From NCBI GenBank assembly GCA_001002325.1, contig LCNZ01000007.1, forward strand, positions 91,410 to 155,409: a stretch of DNA of 64,000 nucleotides, given 5' to 3'. Of the stretch, positions 1 through 64,000 are shown piece after piece. Position 1 is the first letter of the stretch, and the number at the start of each line of letters is the position of its first letter. The notes beneath the pieces were generated by a model. It had not been told where the DNA came from and ran no database searches. It saw nothing but the letters and a program-made list of their open reading frames with translations. A program made the translations under genes and the position numbers. This DNA comes from Candidatus Amesbacteria bacterium GW2011_GWB1_47_19. Its GTDB lineage: Bacteria; Patescibacteriota; Microgenomatia; CAZETR01; Amesbacteraceae.

Positions 1-389
1 AAGAGGTCCTCTTGTGCGGGGGGACGGAGACCCCTCCGAGTTCCAGAATTCATAAGGCGGCGGTGGGGACGGAAACATGGGTGCCCTGGCGGTATTTCAA
101 AAGCGCTCAGGAAGCGCTTTTTGATCTCAGATCGCAGATCCCAGATCTCAGAATAATAGCAGTCGAGCAGGATAAACGCTCCGCTTCAATTTTCAATTTT
201 CAATTTTCAATTTTCAAAAATATGCCGGCAGCTGTGGTGGTGGGGCATGAGACGGAGGGGGTATCCAAAGAAGTGCTGGAGATGGCGGATAAGATTGTGG
301 AGATCCCTATGTGGGGGGTTAATAAATCTTTGAACGTGGTGGTGAGCCTGGGGATAGTGCTGTATCAATTATTGACCCCTGGGAATTAG
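1..389 (+). CDS. SpoU/TrmH-family RNA 2'-O-methyltransferase, C-terminal part. The 5' end is truncated by the window edge; the ORF is open to nt 1.
   Basis: C-terminal SpoU motifs are present (PAAVVVGHETEGVS..IPMWGVNKSLNVVVSLGIVLYQL). An in-frame caatttt repeat insertion (FNFQFSIFKN) sits just upstream of the glycine-rich motif. Confidence 0.6.
   Translation, partial: EVLLCGGTETPPSSRIHKAAVGTETWVPWRYFKSAQEALFDLRSQIPDLRIIAVEQDKRSASIFNFQFSIFKNMPAAVVVGHETEGVSKEVLEMADKIVEIPMWGVNKSLNVVVSLGIVLYQLLTPGN
125..152 (+). repeat. cagatcN heptamer tandem repeat inside the SpoU CDS.
   Basis: ctcagatcgcagatcccagatctcagaa. Confidence 0.6.
187..217 (+). repeat. caatttt tandem repeat (4.4 units) inside the SpoU CDS, in frame.
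   Basis: caattttcaattttcaattttcaattttcaa. Confidence 0.8.
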
Positions 390-32195: not shown

Positions 32196-33281
32196 CTACT
32201 TTGTCAAGAGGCGGGGGATAAACGGGGAGAGGCGGGTGAGAACTTCGTAAGCGATATTACCCGTGGATTTTGCCAAGTCCCAGGCACTCTGATTAGAACC
32301 CAATATTTCTACTGTTTTTCCCAATGGATTGGCCACATTAGATAAGTCCAAAGAGATAAAGTTCATAGCAACTCTGCCAATAATCGGGGTGGATTTATTA
32401 TTTATATACACCAGGCCTTTATTTGCCAGACGGATATCTAAGCCGTCACTATACCCTAAGGGTATCAGACCCATAACCTTTTTTTGATTCGTGGTATAGG
32501 TTGCACCATATCCCACCGTTTCTTCTGTGGATAAGTTACGGACTAAAACAATTTTAGATTTCCATAGGATAGCTGGTTTTAGAGCAGGAATAATGGTGAG
32601 GCTAGGGTTTGGAGAAAGACCATAAATTGTAATTCCCGGGCGGACGAGATCCAGGTGGGTTTGGGAATAGTTGAAAATGGCGGCAGAGTTGGCGCAGTGG
32701 GCCAAAACGGCGGGAAAAAGATATTTGGTTTGGGAGACGGTTTGGAGGAAAACATCGAGTTGTTTGAGGGTGGCTATTTTGTTTGTATCGGCGCTGTGAA
32801 AATGAGTGTAAATACCTTCAAGAGTCAGATGGGGGGATCTTTTGATTAAAGCCAGAGCTGATAGCAGTTCGATGGGGGAAAGACCTAAGCGGTTCATGCC
32901 GGTATTGACTTTGAGATGAATGGAGATAGAGGATCGAGATAGAGATAGAGATTGAAGAAAATCGAGTGAGTGGACACATAAGGAGATGTGATGTTTGGCG
33001 ACGAGGAGAAAGTCTGACGGAGAAACCGGGGCAGTGATCAAGATGGGTGTTTTTAAACCTAATTTTCTGATAGTTAGAGCTTCTGAAATGGTGTTTACGC
33101 CAAAGAAATCGACGTGGGGTGCAAGCACCGGAGCGGCGATGTTCAGTCCGTGGCCATAGGCGTTGGCTTTGACCATAGCCATAATTTTGGCGGATTTGGG
33201 AATTTTCCGGCGGAGCACGTGCAGGTTGTGACGGAGAGCAGAGGCAGAAATTTCTATCCAATGGAGAGGGGAATCTCCCAT
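32196..33281 (-). CDS. alr: Alanine racemase.
   Basis: PLP-binding motif AMVKANAYGHG, 361 aa. Confidence 0.85.
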   Translation of the reverse strand: MGDSPLHWIEISASALRHNLHVLRRKIPKSAKIMAMVKANAYGHGLNIAAPVLAPHVDFFGVNTISEALTIRKLGLKTPILITAPVSPSDFLLVAKHHISLCVHSLDFLQSLSLSRSSISIHLKVNTGMNRLGLSPIELLSALALIKRSPHLTLEGIYTHFHSADTNKIATLKQLDVFLQTVSQTKYLFPAVLAHCANSAAIFNYSQTHLDLVRPGITIYGLSPNPSLTIIPALKPAILWKSKIVLVRNLSTEETVGYGATYTTNQKKVMGLIPLGYSDGLDIRLANKGLVYINNKSTPIIGRVAMNFISLDLSNVANPLGKTVEILGSNQSAWDLAKSTGNIAYEVLTRLSPFIPRLLTK

Positions 33282-34335
33282 GCTTGCGTATTATAATGCA
33301 GGCATGACAAAAATGAGAGTAGGGTTGGTGTTTGGGGGCAGATCCGGAGAGCATGAGGTGAGTGTAAGGTCGGCGAAATCCATTTATGAAGCGCTGGATA
33401 AGAATAAATATGAAGTGGAACTTTTGGGAGTGGATAAGACCGGGCAGTGGCACAGAATGGACCAGAAATGGCTACCGAAAGGGGCGGAGATGAAAGCGTT
33501 GCCCAGCGGGGAAAAGGGGTTGGCGGTGCAGGAAGAGAAGGTGGATATATTTTTTCCGATTATCCACGGAACTTTCGGAGAGGATGGGACACTACAAGGT
33601 CTCTTTGAACTTTTGGATGTGGCATATGTGGGGGCGGGGGTGCTGGGGTCGGCGGTCGGGATGGATAAGGATGTGCAAAAGAGATTGTTGATTCAGGCCG
33701 GGATACCGGTAGCAAATTATGTCAGTCTAAGTTTAAGTACAAGTTCAGGAAACCCAAAGATTCCTTTTAAATTCCCGGTGTTTGTGAAACCGGCGAATAT
33801 GGGATCGTCGGTGGGGATAAGTAAGATAGAGAAAGAGATAGAGGTAGAGAAAGCGATAAAATTGGCTTTTCAGTATGACACTAAAGTGATTGTTGAGGAG
33901 GCGGTAGAGGGCAGGGAGATTGAAATATCAGTGTTAGGAAATGAGGAGCCGACAGCATCGTTACCGGGGGAAGTGATACCCCGGGGGCATGAGTTTTATG
34001 ACTATGAGGCCAAATATATTGATGAGAATGGGGCGGAATTGGTGATTCCGGCCAGATTGTCAGCAGAACAGATAAAGATATGTCAGGAATTAGCGGTTAA
34101 AACATTTAAAGTTTTGGAATGTTCCTGTATGGCACGGGTGGACATGTTCCTGACTCCGGAGGGTAAATTTGTGGTTAACGAAATTAACACCTTACCGGGA
34201 TTTACCAATATTTCGATGTACCCTAAGTTGTGGGAAGCGACGGGAATAAAATATGCCGATTTATTGGATAAACTTATCCGACTGGCGTTGGAAAAGAAGA
34301 AGGAAAAGGATAAATTGAAGAGAAGTTATTCTTGA
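33280..34335 (+). CDS. ddl: D-alanine--D-alanine ligase.
   Basis: N-terminal VGLVFGGRSGEHEVSVRSA and an ATP-grasp core (FVKPANMGSSVGIS). It contains an in-frame agtNNa x4 hexamer repeat (SLSLSTSS). Confidence 0.85.
   Translation: MLAYYNAGMTKMRVGLVFGGRSGEHEVSVRSAKSIYEALDKNKYEVELLGVDKTGQWHRMDQKWLPKGAEMKALPSGEKGLAVQEEKVDIFFPIIHGTFGEDGTLQGLFELLDVAYVGAGVLGSAVGMDKDVQKRLLIQAGIPVANYVSLSLSTSSGNPKIPFKFPVFVKPANMGSSVGISKIEKEIEVEKAIKLAFQYDTKVIVEEAVEGREIEISVLGNEEPTASLPGEVIPRGHEFYDYEAKYIDENGAELVIPARLSAEQIKICQELAVKTFKVLECSCMARVDMFLTPEGKFVVNEINTLPGFTNISMYPKLWEATGIKYADLLDKLIRLALEKKKEKDKLKRSYS
33724..33747 (+). repeat. agtNNa hexamer x4 (SLSLSTSS) in ddl.
   Basis: agtctaagtttaagtacaagttca. Confidence 0.5.
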
Positions 34336-39794: not shown

Positions 39795-41078
39795 TCAGCC
39801 AGCAATAGTAGATCCAGTAATAAACTTTATATATTGTTCTGCTTCGTCGCGGTAGTCTTTGAAAAGGGTGAAACTGGGAGCGGCGGGGGAGAGGAGGCAA
39901 ATTTCCCCTGATGCAGTATGATCCAGTGCCAGTTTGACTGCATCCTGCATACTTTCAGTGTAATAGTACCCGATGTTCGGGTTTTGTTTAACAGAGATAA
40001 TTTCACTCCAAATCCGGGGTCCGGTGGCGGGGAAAGCAATAAGTGTCTTTATACCTGAAGATAGTATCTTTTTTGCTAATTCGGAGTAATTTTGTTTGCG
40101 ATCATGGCCGCCGGCGATAAGAGTGGTGACTTTGGGGTGTAATGCGTCTATAGCAGCGATTGTCGCTTCAGGAATGGTCGCCAGAGTGTCGGAGTAAAAC
40201 TCAATTCCTTTTTTTGTACCTACCGGTTGCAGGCGGGTATCCAGGGGGGTGAATTCTTTGACCGCGGCGTAGAGTTTATCCTTCGGGAGATTAAGAATTT
40301 CAGCGACTTTCAGGGCGGGAATGATATTGAGCCGATTGTGTTTGCCAAGGAGTTTGGTTTTTGTAGCCGGACCGAAGTCATTAAAGGAAAATATAATTTT
40401 TTTGGCAAGGGTGGGAATATCTGTTTGAGTGATCAGATAATCTTTGGCAGATTGGAAATTGGTAATATTGTATTTGGCATTTTTATATTCCTCGAAGCCT
40501 GTGTGGTAGTCCAAATGATCCGAATAAATGGCCTGCAAAACTGCGATATGTGGGCTGGTTTGCAGATCCATCAGCTGGTAAGAAGACAGCTCTAACACGA
40601 CCCAGGTGTCTGGGGTGATTTCCGGCAGGAAATCCAGCGCTGGACGACCGATATTGCCTACCAATACTACCGGTAAACTCGATTTTTTGATAACTTCATA
40701 TATCAGACTGGTAGTAGTAGATTTACCCTTTGTGCCGGTAATACCGATAGTATTTTTGCTGGGGCAGACCTCAAAGAATATTTCCGTATGGGAAGTGAAA
40801 ACTGCACCCCTTTTTTTAGCGGCTACTAATTCAGGTTTATGGGGAGAGATACCGGGACTTTTAATTACCAATTTCCAATTTTCAATTTTCAAATAATTTT
40901 CACCAAACTGTATATGTATCAGGGGGTCGTCGGGGAGCCAGTCGGGGGTTTTTTGATCGGCCAGACCGATAATCAGTTCAGGAAATTTCGCACGCAGATA
41001 TTTGTAAGTGGATTGGCCTTCCCGGGCAAAACCCAATATGAGAACTTTATCGGATTGGGAAATTTTATCGATAATCAT
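39795..41078 (-). CDS. murD: UDP-N-acetylmuramoylalanine--D-glutamate ligase.
   Basis: Mur ligase P-loop IGITGTKGKSTTTS. It contains an in-frame caatttt-family insertion (LKIENWKL) near the N-terminus. Confidence 0.7.
   Translation of the reverse strand: MIIDKISQSDKVLILGFAREGQSTYKYLRAKFPELIIGLADQKTPDWLPDDPLIHIQFGENYLKIENWKLVIKSPGISPHKPELVAAKKRGAVFTSHTEIFFEVCPSKNTIGITGTKGKSTTTSLIYEVIKKSSLPVVLVGNIGRPALDFLPEITPDTWVVLELSSYQLMDLQTSPHIAVLQAIYSDHLDYHTGFEEYKNAKYNITNFQSAKDYLITQTDIPTLAKKIIFSFNDFGPATKTKLLGKHNRLNIIPALKVAEILNLPKDKLYAAVKEFTPLDTRLQPVGTKKGIEFYSDTLATIPEATIAAIDALHPKVTTLIAGGHDRKQNYSELAKKILSSGIKTLIAFPATGPRIWSEIISVKQNPNIGYYYTESMQDAVKLALDHTASGEICLLSPAAPSFTLFKDYRDEAEQYIKFITGSTIAG
40868..40893. repeat. 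caatttt-family repeat inside murD (coding on the minus strand as LKIENWKL).
   Basis: ccaatttccaattttcaattttcaaa. Confidence 0.7.
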
Positions 41079-41091
41079 ATTAAGTTTTTAA

Positions 41092-41147
41092 AACCTCACC
41101 TCTAACCCCTCTCCTAATTCAGGAGAGGGGAACCGAAGGGGTGAGGT
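41092..41147 (+). repeat. Nested palindromic repeat, copy C. It overlaps the 3' end of the PP-loop gene, and the TGA stop lies in its loop.
   Basis: cctcacctctaacccctctcctaattcaggagaggggaaccgaaggggtgagg, with inner and outer inverted repeats. Confidence 0.7.
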
Positions 41148-42477
41148 ATTGGGATTTTAATATATCTTCGAATTCCTTTGGCATGTTGGGATTATCCTGC
41201 CAGGAGGAGAGGATCCGGTCTAGTCCTTTTCCGGTAAAAGCCGCATTGGCTTCGGCGCGGGTGAGGACGCATTCGAAAGGTTTGACGGGGTTTTTGCCCA
41301 GCAGGTCATCCATAATACTTATATTTTCGGGCAGGTCAGGGGGATATGAGCCCATTATTTCCGACACTTTATCTTTACCTATAAAACAAGCCAGCATCAT
41401 GGCGGTGGAAACGCATTTGGGACAGTGTTGACACCATAAGCCTTTGGGATGGCTTTTGGGATCCAGTTTGAAGTTGGTGTTGCAGCTGGAAAAGATTTTG
41501 AAATATTGTGGATAGCGGGAAAAGATTTTGGTAATTTGGATTTCGTAGAGAGGACGGAGGAAGGAAAAATATGAGATATGAGAATTGAGAAATAAGAGAT
41601 ATTGGTTGAAATCAGTTTCAAATTCCAGTGACTTGGAATATTGATGGTTGATGGTGTGGTCCAAATATTCGGTGTTACCTTCATCACTGCTGCGCTCGTT
41701 ACTGAAGGTGATATATTTGCATTCGGTAATTTGGGCTGCCAATAATGCTTCAAATGAATGTGTAGCAGTGATAGGGACATGACCATTCAAATAGCCTAGT
41801 GAATTAAGTTCATGGAGATGGGGATCGATGGTGCTGGTCAGGATAAAAGGCGACAGGCTTGCGGTCTTGCAGACGTTTAACATCAGAGGGACAGGGTCGA
41901 CCAGGAAGGGAATAACATTGTAGTGGGGTTTGAGGAGTTCGAGGGTGACGATGGAGTCTTTGCCCCCACCGACTGGAACCAGAACTTTGTTATTCCCCCA
42001 TATTTTCTTAAATACCTCACCCTCTTCTCCCTCTCCTAATCTAGGAGAGGGATGGGGAGAGGTTTTAAAAGCGCTTAATGCCAGAAAATCCTTTTCGGTA
42101 AAATCAATTTGATTCTTGTAAAAATATTCCCCCATGCCTTTTAAAAACAATTTTTCCCAAAAAGAAATTTGAGAGGCAGACAGGTTTCCGGCCCGGATTT
42201 CGATGACGGGGGAGCAGGTGGATTTCCAGTAGGAGGGCATTAAAGACAGACCCATATGGAAGATGAGATTATCCAGGGTTGGTAGTACCTCACCCCTTTG
42301 ATTCCCCTCTCCTAATTTAGGAGAGGGGTTAGGGGAGAGGTTAATTTTATGGGTGAAGTGGTGATCAGGTGGGATGGAATAGAAAAATTTAATTTCCAAA
42401 TCCCCGTTTACTATTTCGTACTCAAACTTCTCGTAAATAAATTTGGGGTATTTATGGCGAAGTTCCTGATACTTCAT
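41119..42477 (-). CDS. PP-loop (SGGxDS-type) ATP pyrophosphatase family protein of unknown specificity, embedded between murD and murC.
   Basis: VLVPVGGGKDS PP-loop at about residue 165 and a downstream CQHCPKC. Two in-frame copies of the palindromic repeat encode SP(H/N)PSP(R/K)LGEG..GEV. Confidence 0.5.
   Translation of the reverse strand: MKYQELRHKYPKFIYEKFEYEIVNGDLEIKFFYSIPPDHHFTHKINLSPNPSPKLGEGNQRGEVLPTLDNLIFHMGLSLMPSYWKSTCSPVIEIRAGNLSASQISFWEKLFLKGMGEYFYKNQIDFTEKDFLALSAFKTSPHPSPRLGEGEEGEVFKKIWGNNKVLVPVGGGKDSIVTLELLKPHYNVIPFLVDPVPLMLNVCKTASLSPFILTSTIDPHLHELNSLGYLNGHVPITATHSFEALLAAQITECKYITFSNERSSDEGNTEYLDHTINHQYSKSLEFETDFNQYLLFLNSHISYFSFLRPLYEIQITKIFSRYPQYFKIFSSCNTNFKLDPKSHPKGLWCQHCPKCVSTAMMLACFIGKDKVSEIMGSYPPDLPENISIMDDLLGKNPVKPFECVLTRAEANAAFTGKGLDRILSSWQDNPNMPKEFEDILKSQYLTPSVPLS
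42012..42065 (+). repeat. Nested palindromic repeat, copy D (inside the PP-loop CDS, in frame).
   Basis: cctcaccctcttctccctctcctaatctaggagagggatggggagagg. Confidence 0.7.
42287..42342 (+). repeat. Nested palindromic repeat, copy E (inside the PP-loop CDS, in frame).
   Basis: cctcacccctttgattcccctctcctaatttaggagaggggttaggggagagg. Confidence 0.7.
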
Positions 42478-46396: not shown

Positions 46397-47641
46397 ATGG
46401 GGGATATGGATAAAGTGAAACTGAAAAAGGAAATTAGGTGGTGGGGACAGAGGGTGAAGAATGTGTATCATTTCCTGGTATCGGCGGCGATGGTAATAAA
46501 ATACGGATATCCGGCGGGAAAACTGACAGTAATCGGAGTGACGGGGACGGACGGAAAGACGACGACATGCACTCTGATATACGAAATACTCAAGGCTGCA
46601 GGGTACAAAACAGCTTTGATTTCCACCGTGGTAGCGAAAATAGGTGATCAGGAGATAGAAACCGGTCTGCATACGACGAATCCGGATGCGAGACAGATGC
46701 AGCCTTTGTTAGCGCGAATGGTAAAGGCGGGAGTGACGCATCTGGTGATGGAGGTGACAGCGCACGGACTGGACCAATACCGGGTATGGGGGTGCAATTT
46801 TTATATCGGGGTACTGACGAATATAACCCATGAACATCTGGATGATTTTGTGGATATGAGGAGATATATATCTGCTAAAGCCAAGTTGTTTAGGGGAGTA
46901 AAGTTTGCCGTATTGAATGGGGATGATCTGTCGTTTAGGAATTTACAATTTTCAATTTACAATTTTCAATCAAATTCAAAACCCCAAATAATTAAATATT
47001 CAAAAACAAAATTAAAAAATATCAGTCCAGCGCTTTTTGGGGGATACAATTTATATAATATCGGCGCGGCGGAAGCGGTGTGCCGAATATTAGAAATTAG
47101 AAGTGAGATAGTAGAATTGACAGTAGGTAATTTTTCAGGAGTACCGGGGAGGAGGGAAGAAGTGAAGGTGGGGCAAAAATTCAGGATATACGTTGATTTT
47201 GCTCATACTCCCAATGCTTTGGAACAGATGCTAAGGACACTTCAAGCGGAGCAGGCACAGCAGGCAAAGAAAGGTAAAATAATTCTGGTTTTTGGGTGCA
47301 CGGGGGAGAGAGATAAAGATAAAAGACCTATGATGGGAGAGATTGCCGCGAGGCTGGCGGATGTGGTGATAGTTACTTCGGACGATACGAGGATGGAAGA
47401 TCAAAATGAGATTGCCCGGCAAATTGTCGCCGGGATAGAAAAGAGAGACAGAAACAGAGTAATTATTGAAAATGACAGGCGGAAAGCGATTGAAATGGCA
47501 GTGGGTAAGGCCAAACCCGGCGACGCTGTATTATTGGCAGGAAAAGGGCATGAAAAGTCTATTCTGATAGGTAAAACCGAGAGACATTGGTCGGACAAAG
47601 AAGAGGTAATACAGGCTTTTGAAAAGCAGGTTTGTCTGTGA
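46397..47641 (+). CDS. murE: UDP-N-acetylmuramoyl-L-alanyl-D-glutamate--2,6-diaminopimelate (or L-Lys) ligase.
   Basis: P-loop VIGVTGTDGKTTT and the MurE DFAHTPNAL motif. An AT-rich in-frame insertion (NLQFSIYNFQSNSKPQIIKYSKTKLKN) lies at 46941-47030. Confidence 0.7.
   Translation: MGDMDKVKLKKEIRWWGQRVKNVYHFLVSAAMVIKYGYPAGKLTVIGVTGTDGKTTTCTLIYEILKAAGYKTALISTVVAKIGDQEIETGLHTTNPDARQMQPLLARMVKAGVTHLVMEVTAHGLDQYRVWGCNFYIGVLTNITHEHLDDFVDMRRYISAKAKLFRGVKFAVLNGDDLSFRNLQFSIYNFQSNSKPQIIKYSKTKLKNISPALFGGYNLYNIGAAEAVCRILEIRSEIVELTVGNFSGVPGRREEVKVGQKFRIYVDFAHTPNALEQMLRTLQAEQAQQAKKGKIILVFGCTGERDKDKRPMMGEIAARLADVVIVTSDDTRMEDQNEIARQIVAGIEKRDRNRVIIENDRRKAIEMAVGKAKPGDAVLLAGKGHEKSILIGKTERHWSDKEEVIQAFEKQVCL
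46941..47030 (+). repeat. caatttt-family AT-rich module inside murE, in frame.
   Basis: aatttacaattttcaatttacaattttcaatcaaattcaaaacccc... Confidence 0.7.
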
Positions 47642-59401: not shown

Positions 59402-60603
59402 AATGGCTGTTTTTAACGGGGTTGGTGATTCTGGCCGGGGTACGGGTGTTTATAGCAGACAGAGGCAGGTCTGTGGTAAAGGAAGGGGACAAAATAAGAA
59501 TCAGGTTTGTCCTGACGAGTGAGCCTTACTCCAGGTATGGAAAAAGTTATGTGAGGTACAAAACCGGTTTTGAATCGGGTGTGGAAATAGAAATACCGAA
59601 GAATGCGGAATATGCAGACAGAATTGTGGCTGAAGGCAGATTGGAAGGAGGGAAGCTGCGGGATGTAAAATCGGCAGTTGTCACAAGCACCGGGGGGTGG
59701 ATAAAAAGGGTATATGATCTGAGGATAAAATTATCCGGAAGGATCCAGTCCTGGTTGGGGGGAGATGAAGGGGCTTTGGCGGCGGGGATATTGATGGGGG
59801 GGAGCGGCAGCTTTACGGCTGAAGGCAAAGAAAATTTCAGAAAGACGGGATTACTACACGTGGTAGCGGCCTCCGGTTATAATGTAAGTGTAGTGGCCGG
59901 GTGGGCAATGGTGGCGGGTGCAGGCTGGCTGGGGAGGCGACGGGTGATTATATTTGTTATATTAAGTATTGTTTTGTATGTAATTATGGCAGGAGCAGGA
60001 GCTGCTGTGATCAGGGCGGGGATTATGGGTATTTTGACTTGGACAGGATTGGCTTACGGGCGAAAAAGTGATGCGGGGTGGATGCTGGTCCTGGCAGCAT
60101 TGGGAATGGTGATGGTAAAACCGGAGTGGTGGTGGGATGTCGGATTTCAATTGTCGGTGACAGCAACGGCCGGACTGGTGTGGCTGTATCCGGTATTTGA
60201 CCGACGCAGGATGATCAGAGCGCGATGGTTGGAATGGTTGGAAAAGGATATTAAGGTATCTATGGCTGCATATATAGCTACACTACCTCTGATACTGCAT
60301 CATTTTGGGAACGTGAGCGTCATAGCACCGGCTATTAATGCGCTGGTGTTGTGGGTGGTACCACCGGTGATGCAGTTAACTGCGCTGGCTGTGGCAATAG
60401 GGTTTTTTATACCCACTGCCGGACAGGTGATTTCCTGGTTGTGCTGGCCGCTGGTCAGATATATGACGGGAGTGGTTAACATGGCTGCCGGATGGGAATG
60501 GGCCGGTTGGGAAAGGGGCAGTCTGGATTGGTTATGGGTAGCGGGGTATTATCTGGTGCTGTTGTTAATGATCAGAATTGCCCGGCCGCTTAATCGGGAA
60601 TGA
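59395..60603 (+). CDS. comEC: ComEC/Rec2 competence channel, membrane part.
   Basis: Polytopic, with the LLHVVAASGYNVSVVAG competence-domain motif. Confidence 0.65.
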   Translation: MVKWLFLTGLVILAGVRVFIADRGRSVVKEGDKIRIRFVLTSEPYSRYGKSYVRYKTGFESGVEIEIPKNAEYADRIVAEGRLEGGKLRDVKSAVVTSTGGWIKRVYDLRIKLSGRIQSWLGGDEGALAAGILMGGSGSFTAEGKENFRKTGLLHVVAASGYNVSVVAGWAMVAGAGWLGRRRVIIFVILSIVLYVIMAGAGAAVIRAGIMGILTWTGLAYGRKSDAGWMLVLAALGMVMVKPEWWWDVGFQLSVTATAGLVWLYPVFDRRRMIRARWLEWLEKDIKVSMAAYIATLPLILHHFGNVSVIAPAINALVLWVVPPVMQLTALAVAIGFFIPTAGQVISWLCWPLVRYMTGVVNMAAGWEWAGWERGSLDWLWVAGYYLVLLLMIRIARPLNRE

Positions 60604-61445
60604 GCAGTCAAATTTTGAAGTTACTGATCTTGGCGGCTGTCACCGTGTGGACTGCGGTGGGGGTAATGCCGGACGGAAAACTTCATGTAGTGGTTTGCGA
60701 TGTGGGTCAGGGGGATGCCATTTTAATCATCCGGGGCACATCACAAATACTGGTAGACGGTGGTCCGGGGAGGGAAGTATTGGGGTGCCTGGCGGATCAT
60801 ATACCTTTTTATGACCGGAGATTGGAAGCGGTGGTGCTGACACATCCCCAGTCGGACCATTATGGCGGCCTATCTTATGTCTTTGAAAGTTATAGAGTGT
60901 TACTGTTTGTTAGTGGTCCGGAGGGGAGTAATTCGGGTGAATTTGAAAAATTGACTAAAATGATCAGGGATTCGGGAGCGAAACAGGCAAATTTATACGC
61001 GGGCGAGGAGATGAAAGTTGACGGGATAAATTTTACGGTAGTGTGGCCGACGCGGGAGTATATGGTTTTGGGGGCGGAAAGTGACGGGACAGATGTGAAT
61101 GCTTTCGCGATAACCGGAGTAGTGAAATACGGTGATTTTGACATGCTATTGACCGGGGATGCAGATAGCCAAGTGCAAGATGACCAGCTGAGGGGGGGGA
61201 GAATCGGGGACGTGGATGTACTGAAAGTGCCGCATCATGGGGGAAAAGCGGCAATGAACGGAAACTGGCTGGGACGGATAAGTCCGGAGCTGGCTGTGAT
61301 TTCGGTAGGTAAAAATAACAGTTATGGCCACCCCAGGCAGGAAACATTAAAATTGTTGACCGAAGCGGGAGTAAAAGTGATGAGAACAGATTCAGACGGA
61401 GATGTGGAAGTGGTCAGTGACGGCAAAAGGTGGTGGGTGAAATAG
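60600..61445 (+). CDS. ComEC C-terminal metallo-beta-lactamase domain, encoded as a separate ORF (4-bp overlap).
   Basis: VVCDVGQGDA..THPQSDHYGG..VPHHGG MBL motifs. Confidence 0.6.
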   Translation: MSSQILKLLILAAVTVWTAVGVMPDGKLHVVVCDVGQGDAILIIRGTSQILVDGGPGREVLGCLADHIPFYDRRLEAVVLTHPQSDHYGGLSYVFESYRVLLFVSGPEGSNSGEFEKLTKMIRDSGAKQANLYAGEEMKVDGINFTVVWPTREYMVLGAESDGTDVNAFAITGVVKYGDFDMLLTGDADSQVQDDQLRGGRIGDVDVLKVPHHGGKAAMNGNWLGRISPELAVISVGKNNSYGHPRQETLKLLTEAGVKVMRTDSDGDVEVVSDGKRWWVK

Positions 61446-61459
61446 TATAATTATTAAGT

Positions 61460-61954
61460 ATGCGTGTTTGGGCTAAGTGGGTGAGGGTGACAGGAATGAT
61501 ATTCGGAATCGGTTTTTGCGGTTTTCTTTTCAGTAAATATGTGTTTGATTTGCGGGGTTTGGTGGGATTGTTGGGGCGTGAATCCTGTTCCAGACGAGTG
61601 AACTTTGATTTGGATAAGAAATATCCGGTGACTGACATTTGGGATAAAGCCCGGATGGCTGGTTATAGTTTGGAAGAAGGTGATACAGAGCCGATGATGA
61701 GGAATTTGGCTACGTTGGGTGCGAGTATCGTGGTGGAGTTGTCCGGTAAAAGATATGATTTGGGTTTTTGGCATAAAGGCGGGATGACAGTCAGGGATGT
61801 GACAGGAGATGTTGAGGGGAAATATATCTGCTTCGTTCCGGAATGGATTATCAGATCTGACTTGAACGGGATATTCCGTAAAATGGGGGTGGGGTTGGAT
61901 ATGCGATTGGGGATTGAGGTCGAGCATTTTTATAAAATCCTGCCTTTACTTTAG
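61460..61954 (+). CDS. Hypothetical protein with an N-terminal TM segment.
   Basis: 164-aa ORF with no recognisable motif. Confidence 0.3.
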   Translation: MRVWAKWVRVTGMIFGIGFCGFLFSKYVFDLRGLVGLLGRESCSRRVNFDLDKKYPVTDIWDKARMAGYSLEEGDTEPMMRNLATLGASIVVELSGKRYDLGFWHKGGMTVRDVTGDVEGKYICFVPEWIIRSDLNGIFRKMGVGLDMRLGIEVEHFYKILPLL

Positions 61955-61957
61955 GGT

Positions 61958-63079
61958 ATGAGGATCGGGGTTGATGCCAGCAGGGCGTTTGTGCCTGACA
62001 GGACCGGGACGGAGGAGTATTCGTGGCAGATAATAAAGCATATTTTAGCTTTGCCGGAGGCGCGGAAGCATGAGTGGATACTTTATGTTAAACCAAATTT
62101 TCAATTTTCAATTTTCAATTTTCAATCAATTCCAAATGTTCAAATTTTGAAAATTCAAATCCCGTATTTGTGGACGCAGGTGGGGTTGGTATGGCGGACG
62201 TGGGTGGACAGGCTGGATGTGCTATGGATTCCGGCACATACCTTGCCCGTACTGCGAAAACCAGGGATAAAAACCATTGTTACCATCCACGGGATTGAGT
62301 ATGAATGGCTGCCGGCGTATGAAAATGCCCTACAGCGATGGTATTTACCGCTCAGTACTCAGTACGCAGTGCTCAGTGCTCATAAAATAATAGCCGTGAG
62401 TGAATTTACCAAGCGGCAGTTAGTGGAAAGGTTGGGGGCGGAGGAAAGGAAGATTGAGGTTGTTTACGAAGGAGTTGAGACAAATTTTCAATTTTCAATT
62501 ACCAATTTTCAATCAATTTTGAAAAAATTCAAATTACAAAGTAAAAAGTACCTGTTGTTTGTGGGGACGATACAGCCGAGGAAAAATTTGGAAAGACTTA
62601 TTGAGGCATTTTCAGTACTCAGTACTCAGTGCTCAGTGCTCAATCTCAAGTTAGCCATAGCTGGGAAGTGGGGGTGGAATTATGATGGCGTGAAGCAGGC
62701 TCCGGTTAAGTTTGGGGTGGAGGACCAGGTGGAGTTCACCGGCTTTGTGGATGAACAGGAGAAGAAAATACTTCTGCAGAATTGCCTGGTATATGTCCAG
62801 CCGAGTATTACTGAAGGGTTCGGATTGCCGGTGTTGGAGGCTTTTGCAGCCGGGGTACCCGTTGTGTCCTCGTCCGGCGGGGCTTTAGGAGAGATAACGG
62901 CTGACAGCGGGCAGCTGTTTGACCCCGAATCGGCGGTAGACATGGCAGAAAAATTGAAGGCAGTGGTAAGAAACGGAAAGCTCCGGCGGGAATTGGTCCG
63001 GAAGGGGAGGGAAAGAATCAAAAAGTTCAGTTGGTCAATGGCTGCAGAAAAAACCTTAAAGATTATCGATGGCTTATAG
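61958..63079 (+). CDS. GT4-family glycosyltransferase carrying four in-frame short-repeat insertions.
   Basis: GT4 core (IGVDA..LLFVGTIQPRKNLERLIEAF..EGFGLPVLEAFAAGVPVVSS). Repeats lie at 62095-62160 and 62483-62550 (caatttt type) and at 62351-62382 and 62610-62650 (ctcagtN type). Confidence 0.75.
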   Translation: MRIGVDASRAFVPDRTGTEEYSWQIIKHILALPEARKHEWILYVKPNFQFSIFNFQSIPNVQILKIQIPYLWTQVGLVWRTWVDRLDVLWIPAHTLPVLRKPGIKTIVTIHGIEYEWLPAYENALQRWYLPLSTQYAVLSAHKIIAVSEFTKRQLVERLGAEERKIEVVYEGVETNFQFSITNFQSILKKFKLQSKKYLLFVGTIQPRKNLERLIEAFSVLSTQCSVLNLKLAIAGKWGWNYDGVKQAPVKFGVEDQVEFTGFVDEQEKKILLQNCLVYVQPSITEGFGLPVLEAFAAGVPVVSSSGGALGEITADSGQLFDPESAVDMAEKLKAVVRNGKLRRELVRKGRERIKKFSWSMAAEKTLKIIDGL

Positions 63080-63278
63080 TCAGTTATTAGCATCCTGTAG
63101 TATATATCAATTATAATACCTAAATTTTGTGGTTTATCTGTGTATATCTGTATCATTTAGATTAGAATGTTTGTAGAAGGAATTGTGTACAAGACTTTTG
63201 ACATCAGATGATGGATGTTAAATATTAAGGGCCGATAGTTAATCATTGAAATTGTGCTTTTCAGGGTAGGTAACTATA

Positions 63279-64000
63279 ATGGGAAGGGATATGACCTTTG
63301 GAGGTAAAAAACGCGAAGCTGGGGGGGATGTAATGGGCCTTGCCATGGCAAATTTATGGGGGTGGAAGATATCTGGCGCTCCTATAGATAGAGTGATAAA
63401 TAATATTGTTTATGAATTAAGTAAAAAAGACTATGTAAAGCCATATTTTGTGGTTACAGCTTATTCAGAGACTTTTTTAGAAACAGAGAAGAATCCGGAG
63501 TTTAAGAAAGCCATAGCGGGAGCGGACCTGGTACTGGCTGACGGGGTAAGTTTGCGGGCGGCGATGGATTTTAACAGGCATCGAACAGGTGACCTAGCAG
63601 GTGATTTTTTCCGGGGACTTCAGGTAGGAAGAGATATTTTGTCGGGAAAGTACCGGGGAGGGACGACGGGAGTGGAGTTAATGCGGCAGCTGATAAAATT
63701 GTCCGGAAAAAAGAGGCTGAAGGTGTTTATGCTGGGTGGTTGGGGCGGAGTGGCCGGTAGACTGGTGAAGCGATTAACGATTAACGATTCTCGATTAACG
63801 ATTGACTGGGAAGGGGGGCCGGAGAAGATAGAGATGGAGAAAGAGATAGAGAACAGCAGAATTATGGATAGGATAAATAAGTTCAGACCGGATTTGTTGT
63901 TTGTGAGCTTCGGTAGATTCAAACAGGAGGTGTGGATTGCCAATAACCTGGTGAAGTTGAAGACGAAAGTGGTAATGGGGGTGGGAAGCAGCTTTGACGA
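63279..64000 (+). CDS. WecB/TagA/CpsF-family glycosyltransferase. The 3' end is truncated by the window, and the alternative start is 63333.
   Basis: C-terminal PDLLFVSFGRFKQEVWI..VMGVGSSFD motif. It contains a cgattaa heptamer repeat (RLTINDSRLTID). Confidence 0.55.
   Translation, partial: MGRDMTFGGKKREAGGDVMGLAMANLWGWKISGAPIDRVINNIVYELSKKDYVKPYFVVTAYSETFLETEKNPEFKKAIAGADLVLADGVSLRAAMDFNRHRTGDLAGDFFRGLQVGRDILSGKYRGGTTGVELMRQLIKLSGKKRLKVFMLGGWGGVAGRLVKRLTINDSRLTIDWEGGPEKIEMEKEIENSRIMDRINKFRPDLLFVSFGRFKQEVWIANNLVKLKTKVVMGVGSSFD
63771..63806 (+). repeat. cgattaa heptamer tandem repeat inside the WecB/TagA CDS.
   Basis: cgattaacgattaacgattctcgattaacgattgac. Confidence 0.7.

Follow-up and report, generated by a model that had tools for sequence, protein, structure and literature searches.

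In-frame heptanucleotide arrays in a predicted GT4 glycosyltransferase gene of Candidatus Amesbacteria

Introduction

Tandem heptanucleotide arrays that tend to consist of four units have been on record from several phyla for decades and, to our knowledge, have neither an accepted origin nor an accepted function. In many bacteria, heptamers rank first among long simple-sequence repeats and are mostly intergenic (PMC4679880, PMC4692102). As summarised in these two papers, the heptanucleotide long simple-sequence repeats (LSSR) of bacteria (Mrazek et al. 2007, via PMC4679880) and the short tandemly repeated repetitive sequences (STRR) of cyanobacteria (Calothrix and Nostoc, via PMC4692102) consist of 7-nt tandem units, with period 7 in excess, a dispersed distribution and lineage-specific units. 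In the same summaries they carry no assigned function, and slippage in a 7-nt register determined by the polymerase is proposed for them, the polymerase-contact idea being Mrazek's (2007, quoted in PMC4679880). For several arrays in one gene, the nearest parallel is Geobacter metallireducens, in which four tandem heptanucleotides (GGACCGG; 49 copies), and also five, are found, with one dominant unit per genome (PMC2700814). A search of a limited literature collection yielded no report of heptamer repeats in the candidate phyla radiation (CPR)/Patescibacteria. Here we describe arrays of the same general build in a stretch of 64,000 nucleotides (hereafter the window; contig LCNZ01000007.1, positions 91,410 to 155,409, forward strand) from Candidatus Amesbacteria bacterium GW2011_GWB1_47_19, an uncultured groundwater bacterium, where four of them lie in the gene for a predicted GT4 glycosyltransferase.

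We favour, with moderate confidence, the explanation that these repeats are translated heptanucleotide simple-sequence arrays of ~4.4 copies (~31 nt) that are tolerated in permissive loops of the enzyme, and that they are not domains, mobile hairpins or phase switches. They belong to a ~31-nt heptamer class that pervades Candidatus Amesbacteria and other CPR/Patescibacteria.

Results

The host gene and its four arrays

The open reading frame (ORF) that carries the repeats encodes a predicted GT4 glycosyltransferase of the GT-B fold, judging from sequence searches and a structural model, and Tandem Repeats Finder (TRF) calls four period-7 arrays in it, with 83-100% matches:

61958..63079, + strand: GT4 (GT-B fold) glycosyltransferase coding sequence, 373 amino acids (aa), the same as Candidatus Amesbacteria GW2011_GWB1_47_19 UX91_C0007G0188
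62096-62126, + strand: site 1, AATTTTC x4.4, perfect (100% matches), encoding NFQFSIFNFQS
62351-62382, + strand: site 2, CTCAGTA x4.6 (CTCAGTA CTCAGTA CGCAGTG CTCAGTG CTCA), encoding LSTQYAVLSAH
62483-62513, + strand: site 3, AATTTTC x4.4 with one unit AATTACC, encoding NFQFSITNFQS
62612-62642, + strand: site 4, TCAGTAC x4.4 (TCAGTRC), encoding (F)SVLSTQCSVL(N)

The peptide segments that span the arrays are PNFQFSIFNFQSIPNVQILK, VETNFQFSITNFQSILK and LIEAFSVLSTQCSVLNLK. TRF and translation confirm the coordinates, the reading frame and the peptides that an initial annotation had given for the four repeats, as well as its two alternating families, which follow one another in the order A-B-A-B. 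Start-to-start distances are 255, 132 and 129 nt, and the spacing, described in that annotation as roughly regular, reflects merely the positions of permissive loops. A half-gene segmental duplication as the source of the A-B-A-B order was rejected, as the spacings misfit (255 vs 129 nt and 387 vs 260 nt).

Pattern searches of the window returned 14 matches to CAATTTTCAATTTTCAAT at up to 2 mismatches, with 0.01 expected, and 9 matches to CTCAGTRCTCAGTR, with 0.56 expected; every CTCAGTR match falls inside the GT4 gene, in agreement with the earlier claim that this family is unseen elsewhere in the window. Sites 2 and 4 form a direct repeat (62352-62382 and 62612-62642, 30/31 identical), and so do sites 1 and 3 (62087-62131 and 62474-62518, 89% over 45 nt). 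The latter repeat takes in non-repeat flanks, and at the sequence level site 3 appears as a copy of the site-1 module. The identical protein with all four repeats has been assembled independently several times (KKT57915, KKU31965, KKU66901, OGD05956, HBC72241 and JGI contigs), and therefore the repeats are not an assembly artefact. The public contig for one cluster member (P0123, 174 aa) stops within the site-3 array (...TNFQFSITNFH), which suggests that the arrays break short-read assemblies.

The identity of the host gene is consistent across methods. Pfam finds Glycos_transf_1 (PF00534; 4.6e-36, 124.4 bits against a cut-off of 26.4) and Glyco_transf_4 (PF13439; 5.8e-14, 52.9 bits against a cut-off of 28.5), and a database protein (P0001) is 100% identical to the product, an identity that assigns the window to a CPR/Microgenomates genome. 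The AlphaFold 2 (AF2) model (predicted local distance difference test, pLDDT, 88.7; predicted template modelling score, pTM, 0.86) displays the two-Rossmann-domain GT-B architecture and matches BshA, MshA and GlgM in Foldseek with a template modelling (TM) score of 0.75-0.79, while a sequence search also retrieves PimA and MshA. Homologues were aligned from 24 database proteins, 80 loci from species-representative genomes and ~50 metagenomic relatives with DNA, the nearest being P0002 at about 70% identity. Throughout the alignment of the database proteins E286-x7-E294 and the GG..E motif at 307-312 (G307, G308, E312) are invariant, and the QPRKN motif (206-210) is intact, with R208 and K209 invariant there as well; the statement that the repeats leave the catalytic motifs intact thus holds. 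The N-terminus MRIGVDASRAF is conserved in all homologues, and therefore we take 61958 as the true start; the GenBank-derived P0001 begins at MPDRTG, 11 codons downstream of 61958 (61958-61990).

Positions of the arrays in the enzyme

In the AF2 model, site 1 falls in the N-domain loop that joins strands 39-44 and 61-65, site 3 in the linker loop that connects the two Rossmann domains (169-183), and site 4 at the C-terminal end of helix 211-224 together with the following loop. On model and alignment, these three arrays thus occupy permissive, indel-prone segments of the GT-B fold, where they add or overwrite roughly 7-13 residues with the catalytic motifs untouched.

The site-1 segment is missing from the shortest homologues and is filled by other repeats in others. 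Its array is identical at 34/34 nt between the window and the homologous locus L094, the proteins being 59% identical and the third positions of conserved codons only 42% identical. In the caatttt modules of the initial annotation, which included these arrays, the 3' halves (NVQILKIQ; ILKKFKLQSKKY) are not insertions but match a strand and a helix of most family members; at site 1 the module had been drawn to 62160, and 62138-62160 encodes the conserved next strand. Site 3 is the strongest heptamer hot spot among homologues, with many different units there. At site 4, the sequence of P0002 is gcc ttt tca gtg ctc aac; that of the window is longer by exactly 21 nt (three heptamers, seven codons), placed as follows by codon alignment with P0002/L135:

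62612-62632, + strand: extra 21 nt of site 4

This gain would most probably have been templated from site 2, 260 nt upstream, because the two sites share the unit-variant order TAC, TAC, TGC, TGC and the addition is a clean +21 nt. The likeness between sites 2 and 4 is specific to the window lineage.

Site 2 is of another kind. The model places it in a core helix (residues 124-140), the stretch WYLPLSTQYAV.SA..IIAVS shows no indel in any of ~130 homologues, and L130, S133, T134 and A141 are invariant in the homologue alignments. Given this lack of indels and the invariant residues in a core helix, site 2 is a conserved helix and not an insertion. The 7-nt periodicity here arises purely from synonymous codon choice: the codons read ctc agt act cag tac gca gtg ctc agt gct cat, with AGT every 7 nt, and the 22/25 matches at lag 7 are the maximum attainable for LSTQYAVLSAH (exact P = 6.7e-7, from an enumeration of every synonymous encoding with the codon usage of the window). 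The stretch uses the rarest Ser codon (AGT, twice) and the rarest Ala codon (GCA). Among homologues, the periodicity reaches P < 0.05 in 14 of 38 distinct sequences (~2 expected) and P < 0.01 in 8 of them (~0.4 expected), these sequences being related and not independent trials. The initial annotation had counted four insertions, and the comparison with the nearest homologues that it proposed has now been run: the description suits sites 1, 3 and 4, whose segments vary in length among homologues, but fails for site 2, where no length difference is seen and the conserved, indel-free sequence is the very pattern that it had named as speaking against an insertion.

A heptamer class in the window and its relatives

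A census of non-overlapping TRF arrays was taken in the window and 134 loci (728 kb), a sample that was gathered around the GT4 family and is therefore biased. It held 143 arrays of period 7, together with 53 of period 14 and 14 of period 21, versus 6, 17 and 19 arrays of periods 6, 8 and 9; the window alone contributed seven period-7 arrays, and a shuffled control had none. Sizes are narrowly distributed, with a median of 4.4 copies, 123/143 arrays at 4-5 copies and a mode of 31 nt. As the peak at 31 nt and 4.4 copies appears alike in long open frames (87 non-redundant arrays) and in non-coding-like DNA (36), a reading-frame quantum (1.4 copies plus three units) was rejected as the general cause of the 4.4-copy size. 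Array density is 0.2-0.46/kb in Ames-, Davies- and Moranbacteria loci, values that are indicative under family-biased sampling, and 0.16/kb window-wide; arrays are present also in loci labelled Chloroflexi. A scan of viral contigs with (CAATTTT)3.5 gave 16 scattered matches. Most arrays of periods 8 and 9 have four copies too (11/17 and 10/19), which echoes the four tandem octanucleotides of Geobacter.

Reading frame and nucleic-acid structure

Open frames of at least 450 nt contain 98 of the 143 arrays. In 77 of these 98 no phase of the unit contains a stop on the coding strand, vs 35 of 98 for the complement and 64% of random heptamers, and CTTAGCA arrays have ACT AAG in place of the stop-creating ACT TAG. 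This preference for stop-free units on the coding strand, together with the alteration of stop-creating units, indicates that the arrays are probably read through as part of the protein.

No Rfam match at E ≤ 1 (RNA families, introns, riboswitches) was found in 60000-64000, and DNA folding of six array regions gave no hairpin signal (z -0.6 to +1.7 vs shuffles), the sole inverted repeat being 73% complementary and located at site 1. Without an Rfam family or a hairpin signal, removal of the arrays at the RNA or protein level is unlikely. A hairpin or miniature inverted-repeat transposable element (MITE) nature of the modules was rejected on fold z-scores near 0, and an intron or intein was rejected on the lack of Rfam families, the presence of only glycosyltransferase families in Pfam, the kept frame and the avoidance of stops.

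Other arrays of the window

Every array of the window falls within an ORF. Besides those of the GT4 gene, they are:

123-152, + strand: (GATCTCA)x4.3, in a SpoU/TrmH-type methylase ORF (TRF, Pfam)
185-217, + strand: (TTCAATT)x4.7, in a SpoU/TrmH-type methylase ORF (TRF, Pfam)
40863..40892, + strand: CAATTTY x4.3, within the minus-strand MurD gene, read as reverse complement ENYLKIENWKLVIK
46940..46970, + strand: (AATTTAC/AATTTTC)x4.4, in a MurE-like ligase gene
63771..63803, + strand: (CGATTAA)x4.7, in frame (KRLTINDSRLTID) in the next gene, a WecG/TagA/CpsF-family glycosyltransferase

Five CAATTTT arrays are thus spread over four genes within 64 kb, with CTCAGTR confined to the GT4 gene. The five align in register at exactly four units plus 3 nt, and three of them share a further 25-nt extension; the 3' extension CAATCAAWTT...TTCAAAT is common to the MurE-like array and GT4 sites 1 and 3. 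The variant unit AATTACC occurs both at site 3 and in the MurD array, in which TGG replaces the TGA of a perfect array. Alignments to solved structures indicate that the arrays of the MurE-like and TrmH-like proteins overlie native variable segments and are not pure additions; the TrmH-like array (123..217) overlies a native loop at a cost of only +4 residues.

In the MurE-like gene, 46897-47035 (residues 167-212), comprising the array and an AT-rich tail (NLQFSIYNFQSNSKPQIIKYSKTKLKN), is unaligned to solved MurE structures, where a 71-residue segment stands. All five CAATTTT arrays lie on the + strand, even in the minus-strand MurD gene, a number too small for a test of replication-strand bias. 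The WecG/TagA/CpsF-family gene starts at 63279 and continues past the window edge; ~20 nt after its CGATTAA array it carries the hexamer AGATAG x4.5 (63826-63852; EKIEMEKEIEN), and AGATAG/GAGATA arrays are also present at 32923-32952 and 33824-33858.

Turnover among GT4 homologues

Arrays are 2.5x denser within GT4 genes than in their flanks, and they cluster at 10-20%, 45-55%, 55-70% and 90-95% of GT4 length, the first three clusters being placed by the model in loops or helix ends. The window gene is the sole one of 136 with four arrays. The units vary widely among homologues: CAATTTC, GAATTTC, GTTCAAA, AAATTCA, GTATCAA, CAAATCC and, in a Caldilineaceae locus, TTGCGAG at site 3; CTTAGCA, CAAATCY, AAATTGW and ACTCAAW at site 4. 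An array that overwrites a native segment is exemplified by the Daviesbacteria strand NFQFSILNFQF. Still other homologues have, instead, two palindromic in-frame repeat families at GT4 array sites. Even between relatives as close as L109 and L111 (91% identical), site 3 holds a CAAAACT array in the one and a palindromic module in the other, and 42 nt at site 1 of L105 are missing from L115. In 3 of 4 site-1 units, L104 and L105 show one and the same T/C difference (TTTTCAA vs TTTCCAA), from which we infer that units change in concert.

One palindromic family is represented in the window as well. A module CCCTCTCCTAATYTAGGAGAGGG is present there in two copies (42029-42068 and 42305-42344; 80% over 40 nt) within the minus-strand ORF 41119..42477, a 452-aa frame without a Pfam match, where its in-frame reading is SPxPSPxLGEG..GEV. 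This peptide family is met again (SPSNPSPKLGEGRKGEV) at site 3 of L089, L096 and L111, and a second palindromic family (SLIPPLNLRGG / NSPPAAADPSLNLREGRGVSYK) at sites 1, 3 and 4 in L081, L089, L092 and L098. Longer repeats expand at the site-1 loop too: at site 1 of L037 (2600-2870), tandem units of ~57 nt (ctcaagaaccttgagttttgctgatgcaaaacataagaacccttcgtctaa) are interrupted by an N run. Two copies are frame-broken relative to the near-identical L089, namely L123 at 2715-2725 (31-nt deletion, site 4) and L119 at 335-345 (26-nt deletion in a site-1 palindromic insert); a pseudogene, a population variant or an assembly error could lie behind each.

In relatives, the GT4 stop codon is overlapped or directly followed by a heptamer array of 4.4-4.7 copies, and TAA-containing units supply the stop:

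L001, 3573-3684: stop-codon array region
L094, 3055-3163: stop-codon array region
L104, 3058-3167: stop-codon array region
L113, 1777-1892: stop-codon array region
L114, 3088-3200: stop-codon array region
L115, 1798-1904: stop-codon array region

A second array follows ~80 nt past the stop-codon array, with the conserved motif TGGGGATAAAATGTGTACAAAA between the two and CTTGTAG after both. The window is without stop-codon arrays, yet keeps CCTGTAGTATATATCAATTATAAT at about 63095-63118.

Discussion

Under the explanation that we favour, the polymerase would slip, or transiently switch templates, in a 7-nt register and so create and homogenise the arrays, and 7-nt loops should escape bacterial mismatch repair. 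Within genes, only changes of three units (21 nt, or seven codons) and units that are stop-free on the coding strand would survive. Templated correction of a proto-periodic coding stretch, acting on silent sites at unchanged length, could have produced site 2, and the same correction could account for arrays that overwrite native segments, such as the TrmH loop and the Daviesbacteria strand. The GT4 loops would serve as repeated landing and retention sites, retaining arrays because almost any peptide is tolerated there.

Several results weigh against this explanation. Plain slippage predicts broad, roughly geometric copy numbers and differences between relatives, and what is found is ~4.1-4.9 copies, a tight size that holds in non-coding DNA as well (36 arrays, mode 31 nt). 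An array is kept at or after the GT4 stop codon, at a conserved position, in a dozen relatives; the site-1 array is perfectly conserved across genes whose silent sites are saturated; and site 2 uses the rarest codons. Size constancy, site-1 conservation and the site-2 codons are explained equally well or better by selection on DNA or RNA. At site 4, simple slippage would not be expected to lengthen a 1.4-copy sequence by three units in one step, and a three-unit loss in the P0002 lineage would account equally well for the 21-nt difference. The idea that site 2 templates site 4 within the gene as a general rule was rejected, within-gene similarity not exceeding between-gene similarity once the window was excluded (permutation P = 0.23). 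The bias of the census towards loci around the GT4 family counts on the same side.

Glycosyltransferase genes are classical targets of repeat switching in Haemophilus, Neisseria and Campylobacter, and the heptanucleotide tracts of H. influenzae have reportedly been treated in a published study. A phase-variation (contingency) switch of a surface-polysaccharide glycosyltransferase, in which a one-unit change shifts the frame, would therefore fit a unit length that is not a multiple of 3 and a gene of this kind, and the initial annotation had suggested looking for the length polymorphism that goes with it. We consider such a switch highly improbable: the protein is identical, with no copy-number difference, in at least five independent assemblies, whose consensus could hide minority variants; a shift of ±7 or ±14 nt at an array is absent from all 136 homologues; just two copies are broken, by deletions of 26 and 31 nt; and the arrays are short (4.4 units) and occur also in the essential MurD and MurE-like genes and in a tRNA/rRNA methylase. 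We attach just as little weight to the repeat peptides (NFQFSIFNFQS, STQCSVL) being adaptive, for instance as interaction loops selected at the amino-acid level. NFQFS-like peptides do recur at sites 1 and 3 in distant Daviesbacteria and Moranbacteria, but the recurrence is at the DNA level, with perfect 7-nt periodicity and no silent variation; homologues have unrelated peptides or none at the same sites, and elsewhere, as in MurD, the DNA unit is translated from another frame or strand. Copying of arrays, or of modules of ~45-60 nt, between loci by ectopic gene conversion or mobilisation, with the GT4 gene receiving two copies of one and duplicating another internally, is unlikely, though a number of observations point that way: the 45-nt likeness of sites 1 and 3 with its non-repeat flanks, the 3' extension that they share with the MurE-like array, the AATTACC unit common to site 3 and MurD, the five CAATTTT arrays within 64 kb, and the swapping of site-3 content between two repeat families in near relatives. 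Against it stand the lack of terminal inverted repeats, target-site duplications and hairpins where these were looked for, the predominance of singletons among census units and the restriction of CTCAGTR to one gene; site 2, being without an indel, holds no inserted copy.

The arrays could, finally, be selected cis-acting DNA or RNA elements that are read by a multimeric or multi-domain factor, kept in periodicity and length by purifying selection, not mutation bias, and overlaid on tolerant coding sequence, with regulation, pausing, nucleoid organisation or replication as proposed roles. We regard this as possible, if tentative. It would account for the fixed ~31-nt size in coding and non-coding DNA, for the exact four units plus 3 nt, in register, of all five CAATTTT arrays of the window, and for the different units of unchanged periodicity and length at site 4 and past the stop codon, as well as for the identity of the site-1 array between genes with saturated silent sites and the overriding of codon preference at site 2 and, likewise, in 14/38 homologue sequences. 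Unrelated units with a four-unit preference and near-stop positions in Xanthomonas and Nostoc (PMC4692102), and the annotation of the Geobacter arrays as putative regulatory sites (PMC2700814), are consistent with it. The ~40 distinct units between and within genomes are, however, hard to fit to one sequence-specific binder, presence and absence turn over fast, as between L109 and L111, and neither a secondary-structure signal in the array regions nor an Rfam family in 60000-64000 was detected. A wider claim, that four-unit heptamer arrays form a distinct and actively maintained element class in CPR, with ~31-nt length and periodicity enforced at the DNA or RNA level, seems to us doubtful; the class would probably extend to Chloroflexi, cyanobacteria, Geobacter and Xanthomonas, and a period-specific 'writer' or homogenising activity might do the enforcing, as might a factor reading four phased heptamers. 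Were it true, enforcement would overwrite the silent sites of a conserved helix and hold arrays perfect while the gene saturates, and the GT4 gene would be a dual-coding sequence with four such elements, a case of high interest.

Whether the translated simple-sequence arrays that we favour or such selected elements are at work, the GT4 family offers an unusually clean natural experiment, with the same three loops occupied by different units in many CPR lineages, a clean 21-nt gain or loss, concerted unit change and silent sites at maximal 7-nt periodicity. With these features one can test whether the arrays are selected elements or a mutational signature left by the replication or repair machinery of these reduced genomes. 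They also inflate and diversify CPR proteins, break assemblies and can mislead homology and annotation.

The phase-variable tracts of pathogens resemble the GT4 arrays as non-triplet repeats in a glycosyltransferase frame; here the arrays are short, lie in essential genes too and show no length polymorphism or off-phase copies. Rickettsia palindromic elements are palindromes of 100-150 bp that persist in genes, in frame, at surface-exposed tolerant segments. The in-frame tolerance is alike, but the GT4 arrays are 31-nt direct repeats without a hairpin signal; a palindromic in-frame family coexists with them in the window genome and at the GT4 sites of homologues. Among heptamer repeats, LSSR and STRR are, in the summaries available, mainly intergenic, with units of a multiple of three reported as tolerated in genes, whereas about two thirds of the arrays described here are in ORFs, read through, and return in a single enzyme family at homologous loops. 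The predominantly intergenic location seen in Xanthomonas, Nostoc and Beggiatoaceae is thus not found here, 98/143 arrays being in open frames.

Published precedents for heptamer arrays of four units, some of them within genes, come from PMC2700814, PMC4692102 and PMC4679880. The Geobacter arrays differ in being GC-rich and in being annotated as putative regulatory RNA or binding sites; that study does not analyse protein-structural position, filtering by frame and stops, or homologous sites across lineages (PMC2700814). The GGGNATC repeats of Xanthomonas and Nostoc share the four-unit preference and near-stop positions, as GT4 relatives have arrays that overlap the stop codon, but they are depleted in coding sequence and their four-unit preference is ascribed to G-quadruplex formation (PMC4692102). 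A G-quadruplex, the only mechanistic proposal for the four-unit rule, is inapplicable to the AT-rich units here and cannot explain CAATTTT, CTCAGTR or CGATTAA, because these have no G runs, yet show the same preference. The TAACTGA repeats of marine Beggiatoaceae also come in 2-6 heptamer copies and, when in genes, are peripheral or in a stop-free orientation and encode peptides with a 7-residue periodicity; they differ in having a single unit, in lying overwhelmingly just upstream of start codons and in being few in conserved enzymes (PMC4679880). Compared with the known heptamer arrays, those described here stand apart in being mostly intragenic and translated, located at homologous protein loops and built from units without G runs.

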